NCBI GenBank assembly: GCA_040389185.1
Contig: JAZKAJ010000006.1
Span: 2,914-66,913 of the forward strand
DNA length: 64,000 nucleotides
Source: Patescibacteria group bacterium
Lineage (GTDB): Bacteria > Patescibacteriota > Minisyncoccia > Phycocordibacterales > CAIRYW01
Reading direction: 5' to 3'
This document shows, in pieces, positions 3,648 to 28,541 of this stretch (position 1 is its first letter; each line of letters starts with the position of its first letter). The notes below the pieces were generated by a model. That model saw nothing but the letters and a program-made list of their open reading frames with translations. It was not told the origin of the DNA and did not search any database. Both the position numbers and the translations under genes were made by a program.

Positions 3648-4582
3648 TTTCAATTCCTGCAAAGAACGAAGAAGCGATGCTGGGCTCTGTTATTGATTCA
3701 AGCAAAGAGGCACTTATTCAACTGACAGGGGAAATTCCGGATATTCTTGTAGTAAGTGATGGCTCGACCGATGGCACAGAAAAGGTAGCACTCTCGCACG
3801 GCGCAAAATTGATACCTTATAAGGTGAGTCAGGGACTTGGCTATGTGTTTCAAGATGCTGTTGAATATGCAATCTCGCATAACTACGATATCCTTCTTAC
3901 GATCGACGGAGACGGCCAATTCGATACAAAAGACATTCCAGCACTTCTTGCCCCTATACTCGAGAAAAGAGCTGATTTCGTCACAGGCTCTAGATTTTTG
4001 GGCGGATCAAAAGTCGAGGGTATCCCTTATGCAAAAAAAATCGGCAATACAATGATGTCATCGATTATAAGCTCGATTGTTGGAAAGAAGTTTATGGATG
4101 TTTCTTGCGGTTTTAGAGCTTACAGCAGAGAAGCTCTCCTTAGTCTTAATGTCTTTGGCAAATTTACATATACCCAAGAAGTGTTCATCAATCTTGGTGT
4201 AAAAAGAATCTCGATTGAAGAAGTGCCGATAAACGTACAGTATTTCAAAGAAAGAAAATCAAGAATAGCCGCAAACCTATTCCGATACGCGATCCAAACC
4301 TCGAAGATAATCTTAAAATCGGTTATCCATTATCAGCCAATGAGAATATTTGGAAGACTTTCGTTCGTTACCGCACTCATTGGTCTTCCTCTCATTACAG
4401 CAATAAGCATTCGCTATGCAATGACTGATCTCATTACCCCATTTAAGGGCATTGCCATCACAAGTATCATTCTTCTTGTGGTAAGCTTCGGATCGCTTGT
4501 TGCAGGAATAACGCTCGAGGTCTTGAGCAGGATTCAATTAAGCACAGAAAAAACAATATATTATGCAAGAAAAAAATCGTAA
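3629..4582 (+). CDS. GT2 polyprenyl-phosphate glycosyltransferase (dolichyl-phosphate mannose synthase/ArnC-like)
   Basis: 317 aa. GT2 catalytic domain (ILVVSDGSTDGTE, TIDGDGQFD, DxD-like), then two C-terminal TM helices typical of DPM1/ArnC-like enzymes. Confidence 0.8.
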   Translation: MSQKILISIPAKNEEAMLGSVIDSSKEALIQLTGEIPDILVVSDGSTDGTEKVALSHGAKLIPYKVSQGLGYVFQDAVEYAISHNYDILLTIDGDGQFDTKDIPALLAPILEKRADFVTGSRFLGGSKVEGIPYAKKIGNTMMSSIISSIVGKKFMDVSCGFRAYSREALLSLNVFGKFTYTQEVFINLGVKRISIEEVPINVQYFKERKSRIAANLFRYAIQTSKIILKSVIHYQPMRIFGRLSFVTALIGLPLITAISIRYAMTDLITPFKGIAITSIILLVVSFGSLVAGITLEVLSRIQLSTEKTIYYARKKS

Positions 4583-14293: not shown

Positions 14294-15643
14294 TTATTCT
14301 CCTCCGCTTCCTGGGATGAGTGTGAGCACTTCTTTGATCGGCATACAAAGCTTTTCTGCATTGCCAGCGCTCCCGTCCTCTAGGATCATCTCAGCCACCT
14401 TTGTCATCGCGGGATATGCACTTCGAAGAAGTTGATTAGCATAGATCACGACATTTACTCCCGCTTTTTCTAGTTCGTCCTCAGTGACAGAAGAATAGGT
14501 ACTTGGCACAACAGCAAGCGGAACTCTGTTCTTGAATTTTTTGTACTCTTTGCAGAATTCAAATATTTCCGTCGGCTCCTTTTCTTTGCTGTGAATAAGG
14601 ATCCCGTCAGCACCTGCCTCGATATATGCTTTTGCACGAGTAAGTGCGTCTTCCATACCCTGCTTTAAAATGAGACTTTCTATTCGAGCAAAGATCATAA
14701 AATGATTGGTTACCTGAGCCTTTTTACCCATAGAGATCTTGTAGCAAAAATCTTCAATGCTGTCCTGAATCTGATTTGCCCCTGTTCCAAAAAGTGAATT
14801 CGCTTTAAGACCTTTCTTGTCTTCAATAATAACTGCTGATGCGCCCAATCGCTCCAACGTCTTTACCATAAGTGCAAAGTGTTCTGGGAATCCTCCGTTA
14901 TCCGCATCTACAATCATTGGCTTTGTTGTTACATCAAATATCTGATCGATAGTACTTTGTCTTGAAGTAAAATCAACAGAACCATTATCAGGCTTTCCTT
15001 TTGCAACAGAATCAGTGAGCGAAGAAAGCCACATTCCATCAAATTCTGACGCTTTTTCTTCTTTTGAGATTTTGGTCTTTTCTACAATTCTCCCAGTAAG
15101 ACCATTGTGGACTTCCATAATTCTTATAAGCGGCTTTACAGATAAGTATCTTCGAAGAAGCTTCATTCGTGTCTCAGGTGTAACACCTTGTCCAACGAGC
15201 CCCTCTATAAGATTGGTAGTTGATGGAATACTTTCTATTCGCTTAGGCTCAACCAATTCACCCCCGTATTCATTTAAAATTTCTATTACTTTTTTTCTTT
15301 TTTCTGATTGAACGCTTTCCTTCCAGTCATCGCCATGAACAAAATAATCTGGTTTTAATTTTCGAAGATTTGGCTCAAAATCGTGAACTTCTTGAAGCAT
15401 TACCGAATCAACCCCGACAATACTCTCAATGATCTTCTTTCGCTGATCATAAGTAGATAACGGCACTCTTTTGTATGTAGCTATAGCTTCGTCGCTCAAA
15501 AGCCCGATAACAACTTTCCCGAGTTTTCTTGCCTCATTGATAATGTAAATATGACCATAATGAATAAGGTCCACTGCCATTGGCAAATAAACAACCTTCT
15601 CTTTTTTATCGTTATCCTGGCTAGTTTTTTTAGTCTTTTTCAT
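14294..15643 (-). CDS. bifunctional cytidylyltransferase / phosphoenolpyruvate phosphomutase (Fom1-like CyTase-Ppm fusion)
   Basis: N-terminal HxGH nucleotidyltransferase domain (VVYLPMAVDLIHYGHIYII). C-terminal ICL/PEPM fold with IVDADNGGF and the Ppm-diagnostic EDK-X5-NS motif (VIIEDKKGLKANS). GADGILIHS is also present. Confidence 0.8.
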   Translation of the reverse strand: MKKTKKTSQDNDKKEKVVYLPMAVDLIHYGHIYIINEARKLGKVVIGLLSDEAIATYKRVPLSTYDQRKKIIESIVGVDSVMLQEVHDFEPNLRKLKPDYFVHGDDWKESVQSEKRKKVIEILNEYGGELVEPKRIESIPSTTNLIEGLVGQGVTPETRMKLLRRYLSVKPLIRIMEVHNGLTGRIVEKTKISKEEKASEFDGMWLSSLTDSVAKGKPDNGSVDFTSRQSTIDQIFDVTTKPMIVDADNGGFPEHFALMVKTLERLGASAVIIEDKKGLKANSLFGTGANQIQDSIEDFCYKISMGKKAQVTNHFMIFARIESLILKQGMEDALTRAKAYIEAGADGILIHSKEKEPTEIFEFCKEYKKFKNRVPLAVVPSTYSSVTEDELEKAGVNVVIYANQLLRSAYPAMTKVAEMILEDGSAGNAEKLCMPIKEVLTLIPGSGGE

Positions 15644-15689
15644 AGAGATTACTATACATTATGGCAATACTTATAACAAGTTCAAACCC

Positions 15690-16622
15690 TTAAACTAACT
15701 CAGCAGTAAAAGTTTTTTTACTTAATAATTCATTGTAGAGCATTGACCACTCTGCACTATATTTTTTAAATTCTTCAACTTCTTTTTCATCCCAGATTTT
15801 CTCTTTGTTATGCCATGGCTTTATGCCCTTTTTCTGCATCTTCTTGATCTCTTTTTCACTCAAGATCGGTGTCAATCCAAACTCTTTTGCCACATTCTTA
15901 TAGTAGCCATAATAATCCTGTCTTGCTTCATTCAATTTAAATATAAAGATCTTCTCTTTTGGAATTTCTTTCAACTGTTCCCAAATATCTTTATTCATCT
16001 TATTTCCCCACCACGCGATCTTTCCGACTCGAGTGAGACCATCCCATTCTCTATAGAATTCTCCGTTAGGCACCAGTCGTCCAAAGAGATAAAGCCAATA
16101 CCATTTCTGTGGAAAGTTAGGTTGAAACCCGAGTGCCATATCGACATTATCTCGCACATATTTGTGCTCAAAAAATCCCTTATTGTAAATCGATTGGACT
16201 GTAAACTTTGGATCATTGATCGCAAAGATGATTCGTTCAGGTCGAAGCAAAGTATTGAGTTCTACAATCCCATGTGAAAAGAAAGGGCTGATAACAAGCG
16301 CAATATCTCCTTTTTTCCAATCTTCAACAATGCCGTGCTTTATAAGCTTTATGATCCCTGCAGTATCAATCGGTAGTTTGTTGTATTTTATGTATCGATA
16401 GAAACATTCCGGCTCAAAATATCTTTCAGTGATTCCTGTTGCATTTGTATGCAAATTAAAAATATCTCCAAGCAAACGTGTGCCAGAGCGAGCCGCTAAA
16501 GTACAAAGAATTAACTTTTTCCCAGCCTGAAGTCCTTTTTCGTATTCCAAATCAACTGATTCAAGTATTTTGGAATCGAGACCTCCCCTATCCCATGAGA
16601 TCAAAAGCTTTCCTATTTTCAT
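15690..16622 (-). CDS. sulfotransferase-fold family protein
   Basis: 5'-PSB-like CTLAARSGTRLL and 3'-PB-like FAINDPKFTVQSIY motifs. 310 aa. Confidence 0.5.
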   Translation of the reverse strand: MKIGKLLISWDRGGLDSKILESVDLEYEKGLQAGKKLILCTLAARSGTRLLGDIFNLHTNATGITERYFEPECFYRYIKYNKLPIDTAGIIKLIKHGIVEDWKKGDIALVISPFFSHGIVELNTLLRPERIIFAINDPKFTVQSIYNKGFFEHKYVRDNVDMALGFQPNFPQKWYWLYLFGRLVPNGEFYREWDGLTRVGKIAWWGNKMNKDIWEQLKEIPKEKIFIFKLNEARQDYYGYYKNVAKEFGLTPILSEKEIKKMQKKGIKPWHNKEKIWDEKEVEEFKKYSAEWSMLYNELLSKKTFTAELV

Positions 16623-16629
16623 AATAAAA

Positions 16630-17760
16630 TTAGATGATGGTGTTTAGTATTAATCTTGCGTCTATGAGGGTCATATTTCTCGGATTATTCTTCATTCGTT
16701 CTATCGATGCTTCCTTGAGAATCAGATCGATATCCACCGGCTTCAATTTATCAAAATTCACCTTAAGTCCTATTGCATTAAAAAGTTCATCTAGTGTTTC
16801 TGATGCTTCTTTTGGGGTCTTAGTGCCTAGTATCTCGACGATCTCATCGATCGTCCCCTTTACATAACTTACTCCCCGAGGATCGTTATTATTTTCTTCA
16901 TTAACCTCGCTATTATATATCAAAATCTGAGGCAGAGTAAGAGATACTGCCTGGCCGTGCGGAATGTTGAAATGGGATGTAAACGGATAAGAAAGGGCGT
17001 GGCAAGCGGTAGTTTTTGAGATATTAATAGCCTTTCCTGCCAAGTGCGAACCTTTTGCTATAATTTCTCGAAGTTTTTGATCTGGTTTTAATACCACATC
17101 TTTCAAATTTGGATATAAAAGAGATAGAGCTTCTCTTGCATACTCTTTTGATTCTTCAGTTGAAGCAACAGACCACAATGATTCAATCGCCTGACAAAGT
17201 GCATCAGCACCTGCCTGTGCCGTAATCTCTGCATTTAAATTTGATGTGAGTAGTGGATCAACGATTGAAATAGTAGGTAAGATCTTTTGATCGGCAAGCG
17301 AATATTTTGTTGTATCAATATAAACCACTGCAAAATGTGTTGCCTCGCTTCCAGATCCAGATGTAGTAGGAATCGCAACAAGCGGCAAGCCATTTGTTGT
17401 TAATTTTTTTTCTCCTTTAATACAATCTTCCAAATCACCCATCTGAAACGAAAGTATATTTACAAGTTTTGCCATATCGATCACACTGCCACCTCCAACT
17501 GCAACAACTATATCAGGAACAAATTTTTTAAACTCTTCTATCCCCTTTTTTACATCTATAATATTTGGATTTGATTTGAAATCAGAGAATTGAAAAACAT
17601 TCTTACCTTGAAAGATAGACTCTAATTCTTTTTCTGCCCCCGATTCTTTGAACGAATTTTTGCCCGTTACAAGAAAGATCCTTTCGCTTTTTAAATTGCT
17701 TAGGACCTCTTCAAGTTTTTTAATGCTACCATTCCCAAAATATTCTACTTGTTTTTCCAT
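16630..17760 (-). CDS. iron-containing (group III) alcohol dehydrogenase; candidate phosphonoacetaldehyde reductase (FomC/PhpC-like)
   Basis: VAVGGGSVIDMAK and a metal-binding His-rich C-terminal half. Sits between Ppd and the Ppm fusion. Confidence 0.75.
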   Translation of the reverse strand: MEKQVEYFGNGSIKKLEEVLSNLKSERIFLVTGKNSFKESGAEKELESIFQGKNVFQFSDFKSNPNIIDVKKGIEEFKKFVPDIVVAVGGGSVIDMAKLVNILSFQMGDLEDCIKGEKKLTTNGLPLVAIPTTSGSGSEATHFAVVYIDTTKYSLADQKILPTISIVDPLLTSNLNAEITAQAGADALCQAIESLWSVASTEESKEYAREALSLLYPNLKDVVLKPDQKLREIIAKGSHLAGKAINISKTTACHALSYPFTSHFNIPHGQAVSLTLPQILIYNSEVNEENNNDPRGVSYVKGTIDEIVEILGTKTPKEASETLDELFNAIGLKVNFDKLKPVDIDLILKEASIERMKNNPRNMTLIDARLILNTII

Positions 17761-17762
17761 TT

Positions 17763-18893
17763 CTAATTATTCAAAAAATTCATAAAATCGTTCTTATTCT
17801 CTAAAGGAGTTCTTGTTGGTCTCCCAAGATCTTTTCTTGCACCAGGTGTTACAAGGATTTCCATAAGAATTGGTCCTTCAAGTTTTTCAATCTCTTTAAA
17901 ATTAACCTTGATGTCATCCTCTGTTTTTGAGCAAAAAACATGTTTGTAATTTGAAGCTTTTGCGATAGATCCAAAATCCATCACTGTTGCGGCTGTCGGT
18001 TGACCACCTACAGAATCGTGCACCTTATTATTAAAGACAATATGTATAAAATTCTTTGGTGCAACCTTGCCCGCAGTACCATATGCACCAAGATGCATTA
18101 TAGATGCGCCATCACCATCAAAACAATATACTTTTTTCGTAGGCTTCGCGATTGCAATACCAAGTGCGATCGAAGATGCGTGACCCATACCTCCAACAGT
18201 GAGAAAATCTCGGTCGTGTGTGTCATTATTTTTTACTCGAAGTTCAAACAGCTCTCTTGAGAGCTTACCTGTAGTACCGACAACGACAGCATCTCTTGAG
18301 ATCAATTCAATAACACTCTTCAATGCATCTTCGCGACTGATTGTGATATCACTTGAAATATTTTTCTTTGATCCTTCGTAGTTTGAAAATGTACCGCTCT
18401 TTACTACAAGTGCATACGGCGCTGAATTCTCTATCATTATTTTATATGCTTCTTGTACAGCAACCTTGGCCTCCTCATCATTATCAGGAAGAATTTTGTA
18501 CGGAACTCCCATTACCTCAAGCATTGAGAGCGTGATCTTTCCTTGTTTTTTATGCTGTGGTTCATCTGGAACCCCTTCTTCACCTCTCCATCCCACAAGC
18601 AAAAGAATGGGTACAGAATATATTTCTGGATCAGCAAGAGAGACCAGTGGGTTTAAGGTATTACCGAGACCAGAATTTTGAAGATAGACAAGGCCGATCT
18701 TTTTTGAGGCAAGATAATATCCCATTGCCAGAGCAACCGCATTCCCTTCGTTAGCAGCAATGATATGTTTATCTTCTGAAACATTATCATTCACAAACCC
18801 GCAGAAATCCTTCAAAAGCGAATCTGGCACACCAGCAAAAAATTCAATATTATTCTCTGCAAGCGCTTCAAAAAATGATTTGGGTGATACCAT
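17763..18893 (-). CDS. ppd: phosphonopyruvate decarboxylase (TPP-dependent)
   Basis: 376 aa, about the size of Ppd. N-terminal FAGVPDSLLKDF and the TPP-binding region GDGASIMHLGAYGT...NN. Next to PEP mutase. Confidence 0.8.
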   Translation of the reverse strand: MVSPKSFFEALAENNIEFFAGVPDSLLKDFCGFVNDNVSEDKHIIAANEGNAVALAMGYYLASKKIGLVYLQNSGLGNTLNPLVSLADPEIYSVPILLLVGWRGEEGVPDEPQHKKQGKITLSMLEVMGVPYKILPDNDEEAKVAVQEAYKIMIENSAPYALVVKSGTFSNYEGSKKNISSDITISREDALKSVIELISRDAVVVGTTGKLSRELFELRVKNNDTHDRDFLTVGGMGHASSIALGIAIAKPTKKVYCFDGDGASIMHLGAYGTAGKVAPKNFIHIVFNNKVHDSVGGQPTAATVMDFGSIAKASNYKHVFCSKTEDDIKVNFKEIEKLEGPILMEILVTPGARKDLGRPTRTPLENKNDFMNFLNN

Positions 18894-18934
18894 AAAGAGT
18901 GGATTATAGCTTTATATCAAGTGATTATATCATA

Positions 18935-20047
18935 TTACTCCCTATTTTTATTTGCCCTTCGAGTCATAATTCCCTGCCAAGATTTGAGATAGTCTTTCAA
19001 AGTTTCATCAAGTGATAGCAATTTGTTACAGATCTTATTATTATTTTCTTTCACTATTTTTCGAAAATTCTTGTTCTTGATCATTTCTATCATTGCATTT
19101 ACTAAAGCATCTTTATTGTTTACGGGGATCACGAGTCCATTTTCTTTATCACCGATCACTTCGTGAGCACATCCAACATCAGTCATAATAACTGGCAAGC
19201 CAAAGCACGCAGCCACGATCGGTGCTAGTCCGTACCCTTCTGCATTCGAGGTCAAAAGAAAACAATCAGATCGAGCGAAAAAGAGTGTTACATCACTCAC
19301 AAATCCTTCAAATAAAACCGAATCTTCAAGTCCTAATCGCTCAACCAACGAAACAAGATTATTTTTTTCAATTCCCTCACCCAGAATCATTAATTTTGTA
19401 TTAGGATATGATTGAAGAACTTCTTTCATTGCTTCAATTTGAAGAGGTATATTCTTGATCGGTACAAGCCTGCTTGCTGTCACAAAAGTTAAATCCTCAT
19501 CTTGTTCTAACCGAGCTGCAGCTGCAACGGCTTTTGCCTTTGTTTCAGCACAATCAACAAAAATTGGAACAACTGTAATAACCTCTTCTTTAATATTAAA
19601 ATTCTTTATGAGGTCTTTTTTTAGCCTATTACTTACCGCTCGAATACCGTCCGCTCTTTTGAGTACAAATCGCGCAATTGCTTTTCGTACTGGATTTAAT
19701 TTTTCAAAGCCGTGTACCTGAATCTCAAGACCCAAAGAATTTCGTCTGGAGAGATAAAGTGCAAGAAGTCCTAAAAAGTAAGGGTCTCTCGTTGTAATGA
19801 GATCGTATCCATTTTTTTTTATTATTTTTTTTGCAAGACCAAGTATACGAAAAAGGTCAGAGATCTTATTAGTTTTTTTTATGCTGTAGACCATGACTTT
19901 GTCTGTAATAGGTGTCTCAGATGCACAAGGTGCTGGGACAATAATATCGTGTCGGCCCGTTAATTCTCCATAGAGCTTGAATCGCTCGCTAAGTGGCGAA
20001 TTTTTATCGAGAACCGTTGCATCAAGACCTATTGTGAGTATTTTCAT
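18935..20047 (-). CDS. GT4-family glycosyltransferase
   Basis: Glycos_transf_1 signature SNAEGYGLAPIVAACFGLPVIMTDVGCAHEVI. Confidence 0.85.
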   Translation of the reverse strand: MKILTIGLDATVLDKNSPLSERFKLYGELTGRHDIIVPAPCASETPITDKVMVYSIKKTNKISDLFRILGLAKKIIKKNGYDLITTRDPYFLGLLALYLSRRNSLGLEIQVHGFEKLNPVRKAIARFVLKRADGIRAVSNRLKKDLIKNFNIKEEVITVVPIFVDCAETKAKAVAAAARLEQDEDLTFVTASRLVPIKNIPLQIEAMKEVLQSYPNTKLMILGEGIEKNNLVSLVERLGLEDSVLFEGFVSDVTLFFARSDCFLLTSNAEGYGLAPIVAACFGLPVIMTDVGCAHEVIGDKENGLVIPVNNKDALVNAMIEMIKNKNFRKIVKENNNKICNKLLSLDETLKDYLKSWQGIMTRRANKNRE

Positions 20048-21135
20048 AGCACTTTCTTTAACTCAATAATAGTATTTTCAAAGGAAAACTTCTTTGATCG
20101 AAGTATCGCATTTGCCGATAGTCGTTCCATCATCGCCCTATCGCTTCGAAGCTTATTTATGAGAGGTATCATGCCATAAGGTTCGGTACTCTTAAACAAA
20201 AGTCCCGATACACCGTCTTCAACTATTTCCTTCAGACTTCCAGAATCTGCCGATACGATCACACATCCCAAAGCCATAGCTTCCACCACCTGAAAAGAGA
20301 AGCTCTCAAATCCAGAATTTAAGACAAAAATATCTGATTCAGACATGAGGGATAGAAGCTTTTCGCGTGGAAGTCGCCCTGTGATATTTACAGCATGCTC
20401 AAGTCCGAGTTTCCCTGAGAGATCTTCTAATTCATTTTTGCATGGGCCGTCACCGACGATAATAAGCTTCGCGTTTAAAATATTCTTTCTGACCTCGGCA
20501 AATGCATTTATAAGTTCGCCAAATCCTTTCCATGGAACAAGCCTTCCTGCACTGATTAAAACAAAATCATTGTTTGAGTTATTTTTTTTTCTTTCTATAT
20601 TTATTTTCTCGATCCCGTTGTAGATCACGTGTAGTCTTTCTTCTTTAACTCCCCATTTAGACACTACGGTCTTAAAGTAATGACTCGGCACTATCACAAT
20701 ATCCGAATACTTTGCAACAAAAAATTGTACTCTTCTTATGAATCCGAGCATTCCACCAGATTTAGTATCTTGAAAATGATCAATATCTTCTTTGACACCA
20801 AATCGCTGAACTCCTTGCTCCCAGGCATAATCCCCAGGCACGCGAAGTATCATTTTCTTTCGAAGAATCTTTGAGACCATGAGTGCAGGCAAACCAACGC
20901 TTACTGTATCCTGAATAAACAAAACATCAACACCAAATCCTAATAAAAAAAGTTTAGTAAAATAAATAGAGTGTCTCAATACTTTTGGATACTTTCTGAC
21001 AACATCAAAAGAGAGCACTTTTACATCGAAGCCTTCTTGCGGGAGCAGATCATTTAGAAGTTTGGCATAGGTAGCAGGCCCTCCAATTGAAGGCGGGTAA
21101 ATTCCTGTAGCGATGAGAATTCTTTTAGTAGTCAT
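20044..21135 (-). CDS. GT4-family glycosyltransferase
   Basis: N-terminal IATGIYPPSIGGPATYAKLL and C-terminal glycos_transf_1 VEAMALGCVIVSADSGSLKEIV. Confidence 0.85.
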   Translation of the reverse strand: MTTKRILIATGIYPPSIGGPATYAKLLNDLLPQEGFDVKVLSFDVVRKYPKVLRHSIYFTKLFLLGFGVDVLFIQDTVSVGLPALMVSKILRKKMILRVPGDYAWEQGVQRFGVKEDIDHFQDTKSGGMLGFIRRVQFFVAKYSDIVIVPSHYFKTVVSKWGVKEERLHVIYNGIEKINIERKKNNSNNDFVLISAGRLVPWKGFGELINAFAEVRKNILNAKLIIVGDGPCKNELEDLSGKLGLEHAVNITGRLPREKLLSLMSESDIFVLNSGFESFSFQVVEAMALGCVIVSADSGSLKEIVEDGVSGLLFKSTEPYGMIPLINKLRSDRAMMERLSANAILRSKKFSFENTIIELKKVL

Positions 21136-21137
21136 AA

Positions 21138-21170
21138 AGTCAAAAGTCTTAAAGTCTTAAAGTCGAAAGT
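21138..21170. repeat. left inverted repeat flanking the four-helix-bundle gene
   Basis: agtcaaaagtcttaaagtc[ttaaagtc]gaaagt is the reverse complement of 21536..21560, with an 8-nt internal duplication. Confidence 0.7.
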
Positions 21171-21517
21171 TATCTGATTTTTTTAATAAATCCTTGAATC
21201 ATCCTAGAAATTTCAATTGATGATTCATACATTCGAGTAAACTCAGATTGATTGATATATTTAAATTCTAAAGCCAAATAAAGCATTGATCTAACTTCTC
21301 CACACGAACCCTTTGAAATATAAAGAAATCTTGCAAATTCTTTATCGCCCATTCTTTCGTAGCCTTCGGCAATATTATTCATAATAGAGACAGAGGCAGA
21401 CTGAATCTGATCTCGAAAACGAAAGTCATTCAATTTACCAAATAATTTATAGACCAAAATTGTTAATTCTTTTGCTTTTTGCCAAATTAAAATATCTTCA
21501 AACTTTTCTATTTTCAT
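21170..21517 (-). CDS. four-helix-bundle protein (23S rRNA intervening-sequence protein family)
   Basis: 115 aa. MNNIAEGYERMGDKEFARFLYISKGSCGEVRSMLYLA is the hallmark of the IVS-protein family. Confidence 0.85.
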   Translation of the reverse strand: MKIEKFEDILIWQKAKELTILVYKLFGKLNDFRFRDQIQSASVSIMNNIAEGYERMGDKEFARFLYISKGSCGEVRSMLYLALEFKYINQSEFTRMYESSIEISRMIQGFIKKIR

Positions 21518-21535
21518 ATTTGCATTTTACTTGTG

Positions 21536-21560
21536 ACTTTCGACTTTAAGACTTTTGACT
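21536..21560. repeat. right inverted repeat flanking the four-helix-bundle gene; overlaps the murC stop codon
   Basis: actttcgactttaagacttttgact. Its reverse complement matches the left repeat. Confidence 0.7.
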
Positions 21561-22880
21561 AATAAGTATCTCTGCCAATTCCCCGATCGTTCCCGCTCCC
21601 ATTGTTATCACGACATCATTTTCATTTGTAGTCTCATTTAGTTTTTGGGCAATATCTTTAAATTCTGCAATATAAAAAGCGTTTGGGTTATTTTTCTTGA
21701 TCGTATCGATCATAAGTCCACTTGAAATAGATCCATCAAACTTTTCTCTGGCGGCGTAGATATCTGTGAGATACACAGTATCAAATTTTGACAATACGGC
21801 CGCAAAATCATCAAAATGTTCTTTTGTTCTCGAGTAAAGATGGGGTTCGAAAACAACAGTTAGTTTCTTACCAGGAAATGCCTCTCGAGCACCATTCAGA
21901 GTTGCCATTATTTCATGCGGATGATGTGCATAATCGTCATAAACGAGTGCTTTGGTCCCCATGTTTCCTTTGTACTCAAAACGTCTCCAAGTGCCTCCAA
22001 AGGTCTTTAAAGCCTCTTTCGCATCGTCTAATTTGATACCTAGATACGATGAGACCGCGAGCGCTACAGAAGCATTTTGTTTGTTATGGAGCCCAGGCAC
22101 CTTTAGACCCAAACTTACATCTAGAAACGCGCGCGAATCTATCACTTTTCTATGACATCCCTCAACTGCTCTCTGTGAATTCTCATCGAGCATATCAGCG
22201 ATCACAATTCCATTCTCCGGCAGTTTAGCGATAAATTCCTTAAATGAAGAAATAATATTTTCAATATTTCCATAAAAATCGAGATGGTCTGCGTCAATAT
22301 TTGTAATACAAATGACAGTTGGATTAATATTCAAAAAAGATTTTTTATACTCGCAAGATTCTGCAACCAAATAATCACTTGTTCCTGGAATGTAATTTGT
22401 TTTTTCTACCACTCCATCATGTTCGTATTTCATAAGAGAACCGACAATTACAAATGGAGAGAGTCCGAGCTTAATCATCATGTGAGCAATCATCGCGGTT
22501 GTTGTAGTCTTACCATGTGTTCCACAGATTGCGATTGTTTTCTTACTTTTTGAAACCTCTCCTAACATTGCCGCATAACTTAAAACTGGGAGTCCGAGTT
22601 CTCGAGCTTTTACAAGTTCAATATTATTTTCTGGTGTGGCGAGCGTATAGACTACCGCATCAATATCGGTCGTTATATGTGATTCATGATAGCCTTCAAA
22701 TGTTGGCACACCTGCTTTAACAAGCCCTTCACGATTAGAAAATCCTGTGTCACTTCCCGACACATCTTTACCGTCATGCTTAAAAAGCAGCGCAAGCGCC
22801 GACATCCCAATGCCACCAATGCCAAGAAAGTAGACCTTTTTTATATTACCTATATCCATTTGAGTAATATAATACCACAA
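21546..22880 (-). CDS. murC: UDP-N-acetylmuramate--L-alanine ligase; start possibly Met at 22859 (MDIGNIKKVYF)
   Basis: GIGGIGMSALA, ATP-binding GTHGKTTTTAMIAH, and Mur ligase middle and C-terminal domains (DDYAHHPHEI). Confidence 0.9.
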   Translation of the reverse strand: MWYYITQMDIGNIKKVYFLGIGGIGMSALALLFKHDGKDVSGSDTGFSNREGLVKAGVPTFEGYHESHITTDIDAVVYTLATPENNIELVKARELGLPVLSYAAMLGEVSKSKKTIAICGTHGKTTTTAMIAHMMIKLGLSPFVIVGSLMKYEHDGVVEKTNYIPGTSDYLVAESCEYKKSFLNINPTVICITNIDADHLDFYGNIENIISSFKEFIAKLPENGIVIADMLDENSQRAVEGCHRKVIDSRAFLDVSLGLKVPGLHNKQNASVALAVSSYLGIKLDDAKEALKTFGGTWRRFEYKGNMGTKALVYDDYAHHPHEIMATLNGAREAFPGKKLTVVFEPHLYSRTKEHFDDFAAVLSKFDTVYLTDIYAAREKFDGSISSGLMIDTIKKNNPNAFYIAEFKDIAQKLNETTNENDVVITMGAGTIGELAEILISQKS

Positions 22881-22888
22881 AACTGGAG

Positions 22889-23431
22889 TTAAATAGACCT
22901 GATTTTCTTCACAAATTCTCCAAAACCTTTGATTTGTTTTTCAAGTCTCACCTTTTCTTTTTCTCCTGTGAAATTATCTTTTTCATCAAAAAGATTCACG
23001 ATACTCCCGAGCATTACCTTTTGATTGAAAATATACCCTTCCTTGTAGGTGATAATGTCCTCAAGATGCCCTGACGCACGAATCCCTGACCACATTCCAG
23101 CCGAGACAGATGTAATAGCAAAGCATCTATTCTGAAAGGCTTCAGGAAATGGCAAAAGATCAATAAAAAACTTCAATACTCCTGGTACTCCACCGTTGTA
23201 TTCAGGAGTCACAAAGTGAACTCCATCAGCTTTAAGAATTCTGTCTGCAAAACTTTGTATTGGGAGCGGTCGAGCGTTTATCGAGTCTCCAGAAAACGCC
23301 TCAAGAGGTATATCTTTGAGATCAATGAGTCCCACTTCAATTCCTGCCATCTTATACATTTCAAATATCATCATCCCCACTTTCCTTGAATACGCCCCCG
23401 GTCGTGATGTTCCAATTATTATTTCGATCAT
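22889..23431 (-). CDS. NAD(P)H-dependent FMN reductase-like flavodoxin-fold oxidoreductase
   Basis: IIIGTSRPGAYSRKV...FVTPEYNGGVPGVLKFFID, typical of FMN_red/NADPH-dependent FMN reductases. Confidence 0.7.
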   Translation of the reverse strand: MIEIIIGTSRPGAYSRKVGMMIFEMYKMAGIEVGLIDLKDIPLEAFSGDSINARPLPIQSFADRILKADGVHFVTPEYNGGVPGVLKFFIDLLPFPEAFQNRCFAITSVSAGMWSGIRASGHLEDIITYKEGYIFNQKVMLGSIVNLFDEKDNFTGEKEKVRLEKQIKGFGEFVKKIRSI

Positions 23432-23484
23432 TTTTGATTAGATTTATGATTAAAGATTTATGATTTATGAATAAAACAAAAATC

Positions 23485-23991
23485 CTATTTGATAAATTGA
23501 TAATGTAATCTTACAATTCCTTCAGTTAATTTTTTGACTTCAATTAAATCTAATCTTGAATGGATATCAATATCTCCAAACAATTTTATACCTTTTCCAA
23601 ATACCTGAGGCTCAATATCAATATACACTTCATCTATCAAATTCTGTTCCAAAAATGCAGTATTCAAAGTAGAGCCTCCACCAATAACCATTTCACTCAT
23701 TCCTTTATTGCCACAAATCTCTACAGCTTCTTTTGGTGATGAAACAAAAACAGTATTTTGAGTATTGTCTAATGGAGTTTTTGTAACAACAATAGTAAAT
23801 GGATTCTCGAGTTTCTCAAATTCATTCACCTCTTTCATCATTTCATAAGTAGTTCGTCCCAGTACAATATTTTTTCTTTCTTTTATGAAATCATAATATC
23901 CCTTCCATACAGTATCTGACCAAGGAGCTTCGTTATTTTCCTTAGCAATGTAGCCATTGAGTGTCATCGCCATAAATAATATTACTTTCAT
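23485..23991 (-). CDS. dihydrofolate-reductase-family (RibD C-terminal domain-like) protein
   Basis: MAMTLNGYIA...VLGRTTYE...MVIGGGSTLNTAFLEQNLIDEVYIDIEP pattern of DHFR-like/RibD_C proteins. Confidence 0.75.
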   Translation of the reverse strand: MKVILFMAMTLNGYIAKENNEAPWSDTVWKGYYDFIKERKNIVLGRTTYEMMKEVNEFEKLENPFTIVVTKTPLDNTQNTVFVSSPKEAVEICGNKGMSEMVIGGGSTLNTAFLEQNLIDEVYIDIEPQVFGKGIKLFGDIDIHSRLDLIEVKKLTEGIVRLHYQFIK

Positions 23992-23992
23992 A

Positions 23993-25348
23993 TTATTTTA
24001 TTTCGTTAATTATTTTCATAAATTCATCATTTCTCACGTATTCATTTTTAAATAATCCAAAGGAAGCAAATGCGGGGCTGAAGAGGATTACATCGCCTGG
24101 TCGCGCTTCCTGCATAGCTTTTGTGATTGCTTCAAACAGGTTCTGCACAGGTACGACTGGAGCTGTTAACTGTAAGCTGTTAGCAGTTAGCTTTTCTGAT
24201 CCGGAGCCTGGGAGAAGGATGACAGTTTTGCAAGTTTTGTTTATTTTTTCCACAAGCTCATCTAATTCTAGTCCTTTGTCGCTTCCGCCCGCAATAAGAA
24301 TTATATTTCGGATTTCGGATTTCGGATTTAGTGCTTCCAAAGCGACTTCGGTCGCCTTTGGTGTTGTGGCATTATTATCATTATAAATTTTGACGCCATT
24401 TATTTCTTTTACAAACTGAAGTCTCCCTTCTACCCCATCAAACGTCTCTACCCCTTTTTTTATATCTTCAACACCAATTCCAAGTGCCCGGCAAGCTTCG
24501 ATAGCACAAGCAATATTTGAAATATTATGTTCTCCAATTATTTTTGGTTTCCAATCAGTTGGTACTTCCGACTTTCGTGCAATCACCATTTCCCCTTCGC
24601 CATGAGGTTTTGAAGCAATAACATTTGATATTGTTTCCCCGGCCACTAGAGTATCACCATGCTTTTGGTATAAATAAATATTTGCTTTGTCTGCAAAATA
24701 TCTTTCATGTCCTGACATCTCAGCGGTCGATTTGTAGTAGTTGGTATGGTCGTGCATAAATGCAGTAAAGACCGCAATATTTGGAGAGATCTTTGCATCT
24801 CCAAATCCCTGAAGCTGCCAGCTATCGAGCTCAAGTACGACGATTTCATCACCTATTATATCTTTAATGAATGGAAGGGTTGCCATATCACGAACATTTC
24901 CTCCAAGAATTGTTTTTTTACCGACACCTTTTAAAATATGATTGATGAGATGAGTTACAGTTGATTTGCCACGAGTTCCTGTCACTCCTACAATTACAAC
25001 TTCTTTTGGAAGAAGCTTACAAAAGAGTGATGAATCCATTTCGATCTGAATATTATTCTTTCTTGCTTCTTCTATATATATTGAATCGAGTGGCACTCCT
25101 GCACCTTTTAAAATAAAATCCCTATTATTGAAATCTTCAATAATATGCCCTCCAAGATGAAGCACAATGTTAGAATATCCTCTGAGCTTTTCTACAGAAG
25201 TCGTAAGCTCTTCTTCAGTCTTAAGATCCGTCACAATAAGTTCTGCTCCACATTCAGCTAAGAAAATAGCGTCTCCAAGTCCACGACCTAAGAGCCCTAG
25301 TCCTAATTGAGTTATTTTTTTACCTTTGAAATAGTCTTTATAATTCAT
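23993..25348 (-). CDS. murD: UDP-N-acetylmuramoylalanine--D-glutamate ligase
   Basis: LGLGLLGRG N-terminal Rossmann region, P-loop GVTGTRGKSTVTHL and Mur ligase C-terminal domain. Confidence 0.9.
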   Translation of the reverse strand: MNYKDYFKGKKITQLGLGLLGRGLGDAIFLAECGAELIVTDLKTEEELTTSVEKLRGYSNIVLHLGGHIIEDFNNRDFILKGAGVPLDSIYIEEARKNNIQIEMDSSLFCKLLPKEVVIVGVTGTRGKSTVTHLINHILKGVGKKTILGGNVRDMATLPFIKDIIGDEIVVLELDSWQLQGFGDAKISPNIAVFTAFMHDHTNYYKSTAEMSGHERYFADKANIYLYQKHGDTLVAGETISNVIASKPHGEGEMVIARKSEVPTDWKPKIIGEHNISNIACAIEACRALGIGVEDIKKGVETFDGVEGRLQFVKEINGVKIYNDNNATTPKATEVALEALNPKSEIRNIILIAGGSDKGLELDELVEKINKTCKTVILLPGSGSEKLTANSLQLTAPVVPVQNLFEAITKAMQEARPGDVILFSPAFASFGLFKNEYVRNDEFMKIINEIK

Positions 25349-25351
25349 GAT

Positions 25352-26587
25352 TTAAATATTATTAAAAATTTTCTTCATTTCTTCTGCAATCATAGGCCAA
25401 TCATATTTCTCTTTGACCATTTCAAATGACTGTCGTTTTATTTTTGACACAAGCTCTGGATTCCGAACAAGCTCAAGTACAGCAGAGGCAACACTTTGTG
25501 GATCACGGACATTTGCAAATATTCCCGTCTCACGATCACGAAGGAAATCAAGAATCCCTCCGACAGGAGTTGTGACACATGGAAGTCCACAAGCCATTGC
25601 TTCGACAAAAGAATTACCAAACCCTTCTGAGATAGGTACACGAATGAATATGTCAGAAGCTTTGAGATACTTTGGCATATCATTATGTGTTAGCCAGCCT
25701 AAGAATTGAATTCTATTCTCTACCCTAAGCATTACAGAGAGCTTTCGGATCGAATCTTCAAGATATCCTCTTCCTCCGATAATGAGTTTAATATTCTCTG
25801 GCAAAAGAGGCATCGCTTTGACGATATCTTCAACGGCGTTCTTTGTGACGAGGCGTGATGTAGTGATGAGAAATATATCTCCCCGCCTGCCGTCGCCTGC
25901 TGGCTCGGTCGATGGCGGGCAGGCTTCTTTTTTATTTAGTTTATTTTTTACTTCATTAATCTCACTTTCAGAATATTCTCGTGTGAAATGTTTGATATCA
26001 ACTGCATTTGGCACGACAACCACAGGACACCTTGCACCCATATCAACTCCAAAGTCCGCAAGATATTTTGAAATAGCTTGGATTGTATCCGCATGAGTAA
26101 ATATCATCTTAAACAAAGGCCAAAGCGGTCTAGCGCGTCGTTTAATAAATGGAATTGGATCACCTTCTTGAAGTGTGAGGAGGAATTTTATTTTAGGATT
26201 TAAGAGTTTAAAAAAGAGTGCAGCAAAAGAATTGTATGTCGCCATCATACTCCATACTACATCATATTTATGTTTTCTTTGGAGTTTCATCGCTTGCCAG
26301 AACCCTGTCACAAGCATCGCATATTTATTGAGATGGAGCGATTTTGGAAGTGAATCTGGAGACACATTGTCATCACTCGTCCACCCTACTCGATATACAG
26401 TCACATTACCTATTCTCTCTACCTTTGGGAGATGTGAATCGAGGTGAAGAGTTACCATATCAAACTCAAAATCCCGCCCTAGACGATCGGTTATTTCTTT
26501 GATTGCCACCTCTGCTCCACCTATAAAATTTGGGTAATAAACAAGAGAAAATATAAGTATTCGCTTCTTATTATGCTGAGTGTCCAT
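25352..26587 (-). CDS. GT4-family glycosyltransferase with a GC-rich internal insertion
   Basis: Glycos_transf_1 signature ISEGFGNSFVEAMACGLPCVTTPVGG. The GC-rich imperfect palindrome at 25886..25932 encodes PPSTEPAGDGRRGD. Confidence 0.8.
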   Translation of the reverse strand: MDTQHNKKRILIFSLVYYPNFIGGAEVAIKEITDRLGRDFEFDMVTLHLDSHLPKVERIGNVTVYRVGWTSDDNVSPDSLPKSLHLNKYAMLVTGFWQAMKLQRKHKYDVVWSMMATYNSFAALFFKLLNPKIKFLLTLQEGDPIPFIKRRARPLWPLFKMIFTHADTIQAISKYLADFGVDMGARCPVVVVPNAVDIKHFTREYSESEINEVKNKLNKKEACPPSTEPAGDGRRGDIFLITTSRLVTKNAVEDIVKAMPLLPENIKLIIGGRGYLEDSIRKLSVMLRVENRIQFLGWLTHNDMPKYLKASDIFIRVPISEGFGNSFVEAMACGLPCVTTPVGGILDFLRDRETGIFANVRDPQSVASAVLELVRNPELVSKIKRQSFEMVKEKYDWPMIAEEMKKIFNNI

Positions 26588-26622
26588 TCGAAGATTATCT
26601 CATAAAATGGCCTAATTTGAAA

Positions 26623-26754
26623 TTAGAGTATTTCGGAGATTTCGTATTCATCTGCATCATTTTGGGCCTCAATTTTAGAGCCTTTATTTATATTTAAAAA
26701 AGCCACGGCTCCCACTCCTCCTACGATAATTATAAGAATGAGAAGGAAAATCAT
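26623..26754 (-). CDS. hypothetical small membrane protein (43 aa); below the ORF-track cutoff
   Basis: Manual translation gives MIFLLILIIIVGGVGAVAFLNINKGSKIEAQNDADEYEISEIL, with one TM helix. It fills an otherwise empty 184-nt gap. No other support. Confidence 0.3.
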   Translation of the reverse strand: MIFLLILIIIVGGVGAVAFLNINKGSKIEAQNDADEYEISEIL

Positions 26755-26771
26755 AGCTAAACTAGAAGTTA

Positions 26772-28541
26772 TTATTGAATTTCAAGAATTCTCTTCAAAA
26801 TATCTTCTGGCACTTCCTTTTTTTCTTCCTGCTTTATTTCGGGTTTGATAGGTTCTTTTCTTTCTGGAGCTTTTTCTTGTACTGGAGAATGTCGCACTTC
26901 AACTGATCTAGGTTCACTTTTTGGGGCACTTTCAATATCATCTGATGATACAACAGATGCAAGAGCACTTCTGAGTTCTGCTAAATGTTCTTCAGAAGGT
27001 AATTTCTTTTCTTTAGGTTTTTGATTGGTTTGCCTGAGATAGCTAAGCGACACTGCTTTTCGAAGATCTCGCTCCCTATCATATGCCGGATCTCTTTTTT
27101 GTTCAGTGGGTTGTGAAGATGGTTGTACTGGTTTTGGTGCCGGAGCTTTGCCTAATACTGCTGCAAGCGCTTGATCTATTGGACTTGGTCGAGAACCAAA
27201 TTTTTTGTTACGATCGTCTCTTCGATTTTCTGAGGCAGAGATCTGAGCTTCTTCGTGCCAAGCTTTGATCTCATTTTCAACATCAGCACGAGGACGAGCA
27301 AATGTTTTTCGTGATTCAGCAATTATTTCTTCACGCATATTGTGCTCTGGCTTTGCGAGCGGAGGAAGTGTTGTAGCAGAGAAAGGTCGTGATGATACAC
27401 CATCGATCATAAGCTTTAGATAAATCTGTGCAAATCCAAGAGATACTAAGTCTTGCGCTGTAAAATAAGGTCCATACTCTTTTTCTAGAAATTCAGCATC
27501 AAAAGCACCGACTCGAAACGTAATCATTGTTCCGACGTTACCAAATACCGCAGCACGTACCTCTTCAGTCATCTGTTCGATATATTGATGTGCTACAGTC
27601 AGGTTCAATTTATATTTTCGAGCTTCAGAAAGAATATCTGCAAAAGATTCATTGGCAAAGTTCTGGAACTCATCTACATAAAGATAAAAGTTTGGAAGTG
27701 CATCAAGTTCAGCCTCTCTTTTGTCTGCGCGACTCATTGCTGCAAGATAAATCTTGGTGATGAGCATTGCTCCTAAAAGGTTTGCATTCGCTTCTCCCAC
27801 AAGACCTTTGGAAAGGTTCATGATAAGGATTTTCTTCCCGTCCATCATTTCTCGGATATCAAAAGTAGACTTTGGCTGGCCTATAATATTTCGAATCAAT
27901 GGATTAGAAATGAACTGACCAATCTTATTTTGAATTGATGCACCCGCTTCCTGCATATACTTTGGACCATACTTCGCAAACTCGTCCACCCAAAAAGACC
28001 TAACCGACGGATCAGTAATGTGTTCAATCACTTTTTTACGATAGTCTTCATCAGCTAAAATTCTATTTACACCAATCAGTGTTGAATCTGGATACTCGAG
28101 AAGTGCCAAGAGAATATTATTCAAAATATATTCCATTCTAGCGCTCCATGCATCCACCCAGATCTTTTTGAAAGCAGACATGAGTCCGTTTGCAACGAGA
28201 TGTCTCTTGTCAGGCCCTACATCTTCAAGCACATTGAAAGAGATCGGGTTATCGAGATCAAATGGCGCAAAATAAAGAACATCCTTCATTCGCGATTCAG
28301 GAACATATTCCAAAAGAAGATCGGCGGTCTTGCCGTGAGGATCGAGAAATGCCAGACCTCTTCCATCTTGGATATCTTGAACTGCGAGATTTTCGAGTAG
28401 AGTTGATTTACCCATACCAGTCTTACCAATGACGTAGGTATGGCGAGAACGATCTTTAATTTTGATACCAAAACGAAGTTTGCGATTGCGCGCATCTGTT
28501 TCGGCAAAATATACAACTTTGTTAGGATCTTCAGGATTCAT
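26772..28541 (-). CDS. P-loop ATPase of the TraD/VirD4/TrwB (type IV secretion coupling protein-like) / FtsK-HerA superfamily; soluble, with a low-complexity K/E/P-rich C-terminal tail
   Basis: Walker A YVIGKTGMGKSTLLENL, Walker B LYVDEFQNF, and the GxxxFxxxD/AHQ region of T4SS-type ATPases. No N-terminal TM helices. Confidence 0.55.
   Translation of the reverse strand: MNPEDPNKVVYFAETDARNRKLRFGIKIKDRSRHTYVIGKTGMGKSTLLENLAVQDIQDGRGLAFLDPHGKTADLLLEYVPESRMKDVLYFAPFDLDNPISFNVLEDVGPDKRHLVANGLMSAFKKIWVDAWSARMEYILNNILLALLEYPDSTLIGVNRILADEDYRKKVIEHITDPSVRSFWVDEFAKYGPKYMQEAGASIQNKIGQFISNPLIRNIIGQPKSTFDIREMMDGKKILIMNLSKGLVGEANANLLGAMLITKIYLAAMSRADKREAELDALPNFYLYVDEFQNFANESFADILSEARKYKLNLTVAHQYIEQMTEEVRAAVFGNVGTMITFRVGAFDAEFLEKEYGPYFTAQDLVSLGFAQIYLKLMIDGVSSRPFSATTLPPLAKPEHNMREEIIAESRKTFARPRADVENEIKAWHEEAQISASENRRDDRNKKFGSRPSPIDQALAAVLGKAPAPKPVQPSSQPTEQKRDPAYDRERDLRKAVSLSYLRQTNQKPKEKKLPSEEHLAELRSALASVVSSDDIESAPKSEPRSVEVRHSPVQEKAPERKEPIKPEIKQEEKKEVPEDILKRILEIQ

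Follow-up and report, generated by a model that had tools for sequence, protein, structure and literature searches.

Intervening sequences (IVSs) that contain an open reading frame (ORF) have been described in the 23S rRNA genes of Leptospira, Coxiella burnetii and Brucella (Ralph & McClelland 1993 as cited in PMC4990558). In C. burnetii, a 428-nt element in helix 45 carries the ORF for S23p within a 28-bp terminal stem, tandem heptamers whose number varies between strains lie upstream of the ORF, and RNase III cleaves at the first repeat (PMC4990558). In the same account, the function of S23p is given as unknown and a mobile-element origin as proposed since 1993. The protein family concerned, PF05635, is homologous to the accessory protein Avd of diversity-generating retroelements (DGRs; PMC10053308). 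It has also been found in 16S and 23S insertions in a survey of Patescibacteria rRNA genes, where it was called uncharacterised (10.1101/2024.02.27.582315), and is listed as CRISPR-associated in two surveys, with genes inside cas operons, for example between cmr3 and cmr2 (PMC3936711, PMC10910872). Here, a PF05635 gene is described that lies between inverted repeat arrays and between two protein-coding genes of a Patescibacteria group bacterium. The 64,000-nt stretch of contig JAZKAJ010000006.1 that was analysed is referred to as the window, all unprefixed coordinates are positions in it, and L-numbers denote related loci that were fetched for comparison. Positions 21138-21560 probably constitute one copy of a mobile, IVS-type gene cassette in a cell-envelope operon, which would be co-transcribed with its host genes, be processed by RNase III at a stem formed by its arms, and encode a protein that recognises the repeats.

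The order of features in the minus-strand transcript is murC, the 115-aa gene and a glycosyltransferase (GT4) gene:

21138..21560, minus strand: whole cassette, 423 nt, delimited by the outermost complementary bases of both arms; the segment is absent at this junction in related genomes
21536..21560, minus strand: 5' arm AGTC-AAAAGTC-TTAAAGTC-GAAAGT, made of 7-8-nt units that share the core AAAGTC, upstream in the transcript
21518..21535, minus strand: spacer CACAAGTAAAATGCAAAT, 18 nt, separating the 5' arm from the four-helix-bundle start codon
21170..21517, minus strand: four-helix-bundle gene, 115 aa, PF05635 / TIGR02436 ("S23p")
21138..21170, minus strand: 3' arm ACTTTC-GACTTTAA-GACTTTAA-GACTTTT-GACT, matching the reverse-complemented 5' arm with an additional 8-nt unit, downstream in the transcript
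21130..21141, minus strand: degenerate outer unit AGTCATAAAGTC (plus-strand letters), overlapping the GT4 start codon; member of a direct-repeat family and of an inverted pair
21546..22880, minus strand: murC (UDP-N-acetylmuramate-L-alanine ligase), three Mur-ligase Pfam domains; upstream host gene
20044..21135, minus strand: GT4-family glycosyltransferase, Pfam Glycos_transf_1, E 7e-40; downstream host gene

A sequence-only reading of this locus had described a cassette bracketed by 25-bp inverted repeats. A repeat search confirmed that the right repeat (21536-21560) is the exact reverse complement of the left repeat (21138-21170, AGTCAAAAGTCTTAAAGTCTTAAAGTCGAAAGT) minus one 8-nt TTAAAGTC unit. 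The repeats are thus inverted and complementary as described, but they are arrays of 7-8-nt tandem units rather than simple repeats (Tandem Repeats Finder on the arm: period 8, 4.5 copies). The arms measure 25 and 33 nt, stand 365 nt apart and contain paired stretches of 20 nt and 19 nt, both 100% complementary. They enclose a single gene of the 23S-rRNA-IVS family, also as described, with matches to PF05635 (E 1.4e-33, 115.7 bits against a cut-off of 33.8, residues 7-109 of 115) and to TIGR02436 ("four helix bundle protein" in NCBIfam; 113.3 bits against a cut-off of 24, 6e-33). The end of murC is indeed encoded within the right repeat, into which the gene extends 15 nt, although the arm supplies four codons and the stop (SQKS*) and not LISQKS* as first stated. 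The distance of 3 nt given for the GT4 start had to be corrected to 2 nt, and the degenerate outer unit overlaps this ATG. Neither host gene is broken, since the 5' array gives murC a new four-codon tail with a stop and the 3' array, which begins within the stop codon of the four-helix-bundle gene, ends just before the next start. The first bases of the spacer form a further degenerate repeat unit (inverted pair 21529-21540 with 21136-21147), and no obvious Shine-Dalgarno sequence is present in the 18 nt when read directly.

The cassette resembles the ORF-containing 23S IVSs in carrying a PF05635/S23p gene in the loop and in sense to the host transcript, in its size (423 nt here, 428-444 nt in Coxiella), and in its terminal inverted repeats with a stem, here predicted, of about 25-28 bp. 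A stem built of tandem units with variable copy number is likewise shared with the Coxiella element, with GACAGAT heptamers there and 7-8-nt AAAGTC units here, where the 5' arm of the related cassette L002 is longer and its 3' arm shorter than in the window. Unlike those elements, it sits not in rRNA but between two protein-coding genes, one of whose ends it overlaps. As the structural features of an rRNA IVS are present and the rRNA location is not, the cassette is classed as an mRNA-operon variant rather than as an rRNA IVS. The ORF of the Coxiella IVS is reported to be decaying and probably untranslated, whereas the cassette gene is functional and under strong purifying selection (ratio of nonsynonymous to synonymous divergence, dN/dS, 0.047 between the window and L002 copies). 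RNase III excision has been shown for the rRNA elements and would apply here by inference.

The window segment is an insertion at a stop/start junction that preserves both host reading frames. Among murC orthologs compared in a graded series from 91% to 58% identity, three kinds of C-terminus occur (...LIK*/...LVK*, ...LISQKS* and ...NS*), and the cassette-free orthologs end in ...LIK*/...LVK*. Empty orthologous junctions, for which the sequence-only reading had proposed a check, are present in L083/L084 and L087, with murC at 88-89% identity and the following gene beginning 4-10 nt past the murC stop. In L083/L084 (murC 88%), the junction reads ATT AAG TAA GCAG GTG, with the next gene 4 nt past the murC stop, and no four-helix-bundle gene is found in L087 (89%) or L088 (84%). 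Occupied junctions with the same cassette and the same SQKS* tail occur in L002 (85%), L085/L086 (92%) and L089 (76%). Occupied and empty junctions are interleaved on a neighbour-joining murC tree, in which every occupied lineage has an empty sister and at least three gain or loss events are needed. In-silico excision of 423 nt from the window or 430 nt from L002 yields a murC ending in ...LIL*, with its TGA overlapping the next ATG, as in a normal coupled junction.

The same junction has been used by a second cassette type. In L090 (murC 78%), a different PF05635 gene of 124 aa, without BLASTP similarity to the window protein, lies between arms of TAATTTCYAA units (1600-2050 of that locus), and manual excision gives ...LVRI* with an ATGA overlap. 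L091 (2800-2845) and L087 (3800-3825) retain only the upstream array of TAATTTCYAA type, followed by the ATG of the next gene, with no cassette gene; these arrays are solo-arm scars.

An entirely different reading, in which an ordinary small gene happens to lie within a chance inverted repeat or next to a murC terminator, could draw on the AT-rich composition of the window (38% GC), in which short repeats are common, and on the presence of the repeat as a single copy there. This reading is extremely improbable and is refuted by shuffling, by the empty orthologous junctions and by the family-wide enrichment of arrays set out below. When up to 3 mismatches are allowed, the arm 25-mer is matched nowhere else in the window and not once in 100 shuffles, and the AAAGTCNNAAAGTC pattern is confined to the two arms within the window. 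No terminator-like site and no T-run occur in 20800-21900, and AT-rich arms that enclose 365 nt, in place of a short GC-rich hairpin, are not a terminator of murC, an option that the sequence-only reading had itself considered as a refutation. The architecture moreover recurs in most relatives across phyla. Together with further copies elsewhere, the empty junctions and the non-terminator nature of the repeat support the earlier suggestion of an IVS-like mobile or processing element in a protein-coding operon.

Compared with L002 along the junction, the window shows an identity of about 0.77 in murC, of 0.85-1.0 over the cassette and the initial ~60 nt of the gene downstream, and of about 0.45 thereafter. 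Synonymous divergence (pS) is lower in the cassette gene (0.47, from just 66 sites, and a value that constraint on RNA could also produce) than in murC (0.71, 279 sites). Based on this lower pS and the higher identity across the cassette, the cassette looks younger than the split of its hosts. Past its first ~60 nt, the GT4 gene differs from the ~335-aa gene found at this position in relatives (32% at protein level), and a recombination breakpoint lies just inside GT4, at ~21060-21080, beside the cassette. Homologous recombination through the flanks probably contributed to spread at the murC junction. The contig of L085 ends 28 nt after murC and that of L086 inside the 5' arm, which suggests that the repeat arrays fragment metagenome assemblies. 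The assembly of L085 (GCA_040384165.1) also has a contig carrying the exact four-helix-bundle protein of the window, so that two related strains coexist in that sample.

The encoded protein is basic (isoelectric point 9.2) and has PF05635 as its sole Pfam family, and more than 5000 homologs were scored in one search. Invariant alignment columns include D36, Q37, A41, S44, N47, N48, A50, E51 and G52, in agreement with the published family motif GxxRxxxSxxxNxxE (NIAEG region; PMC3936711). Two crystal structures of five chains each, 2GSC (E 1.2e-13) and 2RLD (E 2.7e-9), match the alignment profile, and the Xanthomonas campestris homolog is a pentameric toroid (2GSC). PADLOC returned 0 families at E up to 0.01, a phage collection contained no homolog of the protein, and no transposase adjoins the gene in the window, the four-helix-bundle gene being the only cargo.

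The gene could also be an orphan Avd of a DGR or a CRISPR-associated or defence gene with which the repeats have nothing to do, and both the homology of PF05635 to Avd and the CRISPR-associated listing in two surveys speak for such an origin. Avd shares the homologous four-helix-bundle fold and the basic pentamer, and acts in complex with nucleic acid and a reverse transcriptase. Unlike in a DGR, no direct repeats of at least 40 nt that could form template/variable pairs occur within 6 kb (15000-28000 searched), and inverted arrays on either side are not characteristic of DGRs. Pfam scans of the five genes around the cassette gave a Mur ligase, two glycosyltransferases and a flavin mononucleotide (FMN) reductase, with neither a reverse transcriptase nor a cas gene. 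The same holds for the genes further out (a dihydrofolate reductase (DHFR)-family gene, a thiamine-pyrophosphate enzyme and an alcohol dehydrogenase). A defence function would not be expected from the empty PADLOC result, and repeats that accompany the gene in 55 of 70 loci are hardly unrelated to it. This explanation is therefore very unlikely. The kinship with Avd could nevertheless point to a nucleic-acid-handling step shared with retroelements.

The architecture seen in the window is a property of the wider family. When one genome per species was scanned, 80 loci were obtained whose homologs show 54-77% identity; the phyla and orders represented are Patescibacteria, Bacteroidota, Leptospirales, Ignavibacteriota, Omnitrophota and others. 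Arrays were counted at 70 loci. Enrichment of the pentamer AAAGT reaches about 30-fold within the 60 nt upstream of the gene, as does that of ACTTT within the 60 nt downstream, neither being enriched on the opposite side. At least three AAAGT occur in the 100 nt upstream in 52/70 loci, against 0.4% of 4101 background windows. The cores are spaced 7, 8 or 9 nt apart, and by a chaining rule arrays are present on both sides in 55/70 loci, most commonly with 4 units per arm. Their start coincides with the stop codon of the preceding gene or lies within ~16 nt of it. The arms are complementary and evolve in concert. The two arms of a locus share 9.5 7-mers as compared to 4.8 between loci (direct-orientation control 3.4), and rare unit variants (AAGTACGC, AGTCGTT, AGTTCTA) occur in both arms of one locus. 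The duplex energy of a locus's own arms is -33 kcal/mol, as opposed to -26 for cross-locus pairs and -17.5 for shuffled arms (p = 2.5e-5); the arms of the window give a computed -53 kcal/mol.

Upstream neighbours fall into 107 different Pfam families and downstream neighbours into 70, with examples such as ribosomal protein S7 followed by EF-G, DnaB, RF-1, ABC transporters and aminotransferases, and there is no functional link between cassettes and neighbours. Both neighbours are co-oriented with the gene in 54/64 loci, against a background of 69% in the same loci (p = 0.007), a bias that is real but moderate. None of the 17 loosely flanked loci that were scanned has an rRNA context, and the remaining loci have close protein-coding ORFs on both sides. 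In L028 (3883-4469), two tRNA genes of the same orientation flank a cassette that carries the gene, and an AAAGTC-unit hairpin without the gene also lies between two tRNA genes in L118 (868-1103). Operons of stable RNAs are also targets. In the family counts (L002-L082), ribosomal protein S7 is the upstream gene in two loci and EF-G the downstream gene in two loci; if these coincide, the cassette would lie in the str operon between rpsG and fusA, a junction that is uninterrupted in most bacteria. Two PF05635 genes lie back to back in L082 (1996-2743), and pairs within one 8-kb locus, often of different subfamilies and each with its own unit, are also found in L054, L050, L018, L052 and L053, which points to several cassettes per genome. 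Arrays of opposite polarity, with GACTTT-type or AACTTGA-type units upstream and the complement downstream, occur in L162 (387-764), L047 and L070, possibly as a result of nested or adjacent hairpins.

Repeat units are specific to protein subfamilies. From all fetched DNA, an iterative hidden Markov model search retrieved 102 family members, of which 96 had both flanks available. Two or more AAAGT in each arm were found for 60/83 genes with at least 50% identity to the window protein and for 0/13 more distant genes. The distant gene of L102 instead lies between inverted (GTTGAAATCA)x8 arrays. Further distant genes have inverted arrays of CGTGAAA (second gene of L054), GGAGACA (L151, recalling the Coxiella heptamer GACAGAT), CAATTATCA (L107), TCAAAAT (second gene of L050) and TAATTTC (L090). 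Among cultured organisms, gene GJB62_RS33825 on plasmid pNsp_c of Nostoc sp. ATCC 53789 sits between inverted (GGGAAAA)n arrays and gene WP_004920519.1 of Riemerella anatipestifer between inverted (TCAAGGTT)n arrays; neither has an annotation beyond "four helix bundle protein". If the arms served pairing alone, compensatory drift would be expected. As the core is instead conserved across phyla within a subfamily and replaced between subfamilies, some factor likely reads the sequence. With the protein as the only constant partner of the arrays, this basic and, by its profile match, pentameric protein is most likely the factor that recognises them, as RNA or as DNA.

Ring-shaped proteins that read spaced short repeats in RNA are exemplified by TRAP, which binds 11 GAG/UAG repeats, and HutP. 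The likeness is one of design, with a pentameric ring (2GSC, 2RLD) and typically 3-6 copies of a 5-6-nt core spaced 1-4 nt apart. There is no homology to TRAP or HutP, the cassette repeats form two complementary arrays that are able to pair, and binding is putative here.

In addition to the gene-carrying cassettes, forms without the gene are abundant. While the 64-kb window holds no further copy of the repeat, more than 120 metagenome contigs share the 19-mer AGTCAAAAGTCTTAAAGTC of its arm, and the question of other copies, raised in the sequence-only reading, is answered by these and by the architecture around most gene relatives. The 80 contigs that were fetched and classed comprise 26 mini-hairpins (forward array, short loop, reverse array), 4 cassette-sized forms, 34 solo arrays and 16 sites that were left undetermined. 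A gene homolog was found by tblastn within 120 nt of the 19-mer at 2/80 sites, and 69/80 sites are intergenic. Example mini-hairpins directly follow a stop codon and precede the next co-directional gene, and Rfam searches of seven mini-hairpin loci gave only tRNAs and chance miRNA matches. The shared 19-mer was considered as a sign of recent spread and rejected, given that few unit types can reach one 19-mer independently. Most sites also lack a close gene homolog, and the count reflects abundance rather than recent transfer.

These ORF-less forms resemble the more numerous non-autonomous derivatives of autonomous elements, and the two forms, by analogy, parallel long (ORF-bearing) and short (ORF-less) rRNA IVSs. 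The short 23S IVSs of Salmonella, Campylobacter, Yersinia and others (helices 25 and 45) are stem-loops of ~100 nt that RNase III removes without religation, and the AAAGTC mini-hairpins look like their non-rRNA counterparts. The likeness is one of form; unlike the short IVSs, the mini-hairpins follow stop codons between protein or tRNA genes and are built from a recognisable tandem unit. Miniature inverted-repeat transposable elements (MITEs) and repetitive extragenic palindromes with their mosaic elements (REP/BIME) are similarly small, intergenic inverted-repeat elements with many copies and insertion polymorphism that outnumber a protein-coding parent, and terminal inverted repeats with presence/absence polymorphism at orthologous sites are shared between the cassette and MITEs. 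They differ in that the arms of the cassette family are arrays of 7-10-nt tandem units instead of unique terminal inverted repeats, no target-site duplication is seen, and the cassette protein is a four-helix bundle and neither a transposase nor a REP-associated tyrosine transposase.

Several arrays stand apart from these classes. In L141 (contig Ga0180008_1000027), a clpP gene has AAAGTC arrays or hairpins at both ends, with the arrays ~1.1 kb apart, and an ordinary host gene can thus become bracketed by such repeats. L109 (~1525-1700) and L170 (~3627-3800) contain a nine-unit AAAGTC array immediately followed by a AATTCTTAATT-type array with no gene between them; the latter arrays resemble the second cassette type. 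In the window itself, a solo tandem array of about five 7-nt units (TCATAAA-TCATAAA-TCTTTAA-TCATAAA-TCTAA, 23430-23470, minus strand) fills the gap between a DHFR-family gene (23485-23991) and the FMN-reductase gene (22889-23431), at whose ATG it ends. It resembles a solo arm of another cassette type, with neither partner arm nor gene present. A murD-like ORF (23993-25348) contains internal 7-nt tandem repeats, ATTTCGG x3.6 (perfect) and AGCTGTT x4.6, at 24305-24329 and 24161-24192, a period that is unusual within an ORF.

Based on these comparisons, the following mechanism can be proposed. Inserted where the stop of murC meets the start of the next gene, and without a recognisable promoter or terminator of its own (no promoter-like site above chance in the cassette), the cassette would be read in sense as part of the host transcript, together with murC and GT4. 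In this transcript, pairing of the two arrays would give a stem of ~25-30 bp, with the gene in the loop. The transcript-strand fold is predicted to pair the arms in this way (minimum free energy -105.4 kcal/mol, z = -3.6). RNase III may then cut the stem, by analogy with the 23S rRNA IVSs that carry a PF05635 gene. Such a cut would release the cassette RNA and separate the flanking messages, making the insertion nearly harmless. The encoded protein would recognise the repeats in trans, also on the ORF-less hairpin derivatives. No tRNA occurs in the window, and Rfam had no match in it at gathering thresholds, nor in 20900-21800 at E up to 1.

A number of observations weigh against this proposal. 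Stem formation and RNase III cleavage are argued here by analogy, mismatches in the arms show no significant bias toward G-U-compatible pairs (52 vs 43, p = 0.41), and sense and antisense arm duplex energies barely differ (p = 0.07). No target-site duplication is apparent in the flanks CTTATT|...|TTATGA (window) and TTGATC|...|TTATGA (L002). Automated in-silico excision at 28 loci regained a nearby stop in 5/28 cases, no excess over control frames (9/56); as automated boundary calling is noisy, the claim of clean excision is limited to the murC junctions. Neither a second copy of the four-helix-bundle gene nor one of an arm was found in the 64-kb window, and Pfam and PADLOC revealed no known recombinase or nuclease fold or motif in the 115-aa protein. 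The excess of co-oriented neighbours is moderate, and the inferred youth of the cassette shares the small number of synonymous sites noted above. Units that track subfamilies would also be expected from plain co-inheritance of gene and arms and are no proof of binding.

As the G-U test does not separate a function of the arms in RNA from one in DNA, the main rival is a DNA transposon-like element, in which the arrays would be terminal DNA binding sites comparable to subterminal repeats or MITE ends, the protein would bind them and perform or recruit recombination, and the RNA stem would be incidental. Such an element overlaps with the proposed cassette and differs only in the level at which the arms act. 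Presence/absence polymorphism, solo arms, two different cassettes at one junction, many ORF-less hairpins reminiscent of MITEs and their autonomous parents, subfamily-specific units inverted at both ends, and a G-U bias that does not favour the sense RNA are all compatible with it. It would not account as readily for well-defined junctions that lack a target-site duplication, for a protein without a recombinase or nuclease signature (only PF05635, no PADLOC match), or for a sense orientation to host genes above background, which a self-sufficient DNA transposon would not need, and the rRNA members of the family are known substrates of RNA processing. A purely DNA-level element is thus rather unlikely, although it deserves serious consideration.

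Alternatively, the cassette could serve its host as a regulatory module, whose arms act as a processing or stability site that uncouples murC from GT4 and is tuned by the protein, with patchiness reflecting loss and lateral transfer. Strong purifying selection on the protein, placement at gene junctions with the genes undisrupted, and hairpins directly after stop codons would fit such a role. Across loci, though, the neighbours are functionally unrelated, close relatives manage without the cassette at the murC junction, different subfamilies replace each other at one site, several copies can occur within a few kb, and the Coxiella copies are reported to be decaying (PMC4990558). On these grounds, a selfish element fits better, and a host-serving module seems improbable.

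The preferred reading of a mobile, co-transcribed IVS-type cassette can be tentatively extended to the whole family. Possibly, PF05635 proteins, which have lacked an explanation since 1993, are trans-acting, sequence-specific repeat binders of an unrecognised class of mobile elements, which have inverted arrays of subfamily-specific 7-10-nt units, insert at gene junctions of transcribed units (mRNA, tRNA operons and rRNA) and are excised by RNase III at hardly any cost to the host. The rRNA IVSs would then be a special case and the ORF-less hairpins non-autonomous derivatives. While ORF-containing IVSs in rRNA are known, a cassette variant of that kind in an mRNA operon and the very wide distribution of the family are apparently undescribed. 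In the full-text literature, of which coverage was incomplete so that a prior description is possible, no account was found of cassettes outside rRNA, family-wide arrays or subfamily-specific units.

This pattern across the family is of more interest than the single locus. It provides a unifying anatomy for a very large orphan family whose members bear no annotation beyond "four helix bundle protein" or "S23 ribosomal protein". If true, ORF-containing rRNA IVSs would be one landing site of a general cassette and not a peculiarity of rRNA, which bears on a 30-year-old question. As a cassette can insert between any co-transcribed genes, the PF05635 genes in cas operons may likewise be insertions, and their location could be explained without a role in CRISPR, a warning regarding guilt-by-association. 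The many hairpins and tandem arrays that lie between genes in Patescibacteria and other phyla would represent relatives or remnants of such cassettes, which is useful for annotation, and the arrays may explain assembly breaks such as those of L085 and L086. Each subfamily brings its own candidate recognition sequence, making the question testable in cultured carriers, which include Riemerella anatipestifer, Nostoc sp. ATCC 53789, and Labilibacter, Brumimicrobium and Odoribacter isolates.

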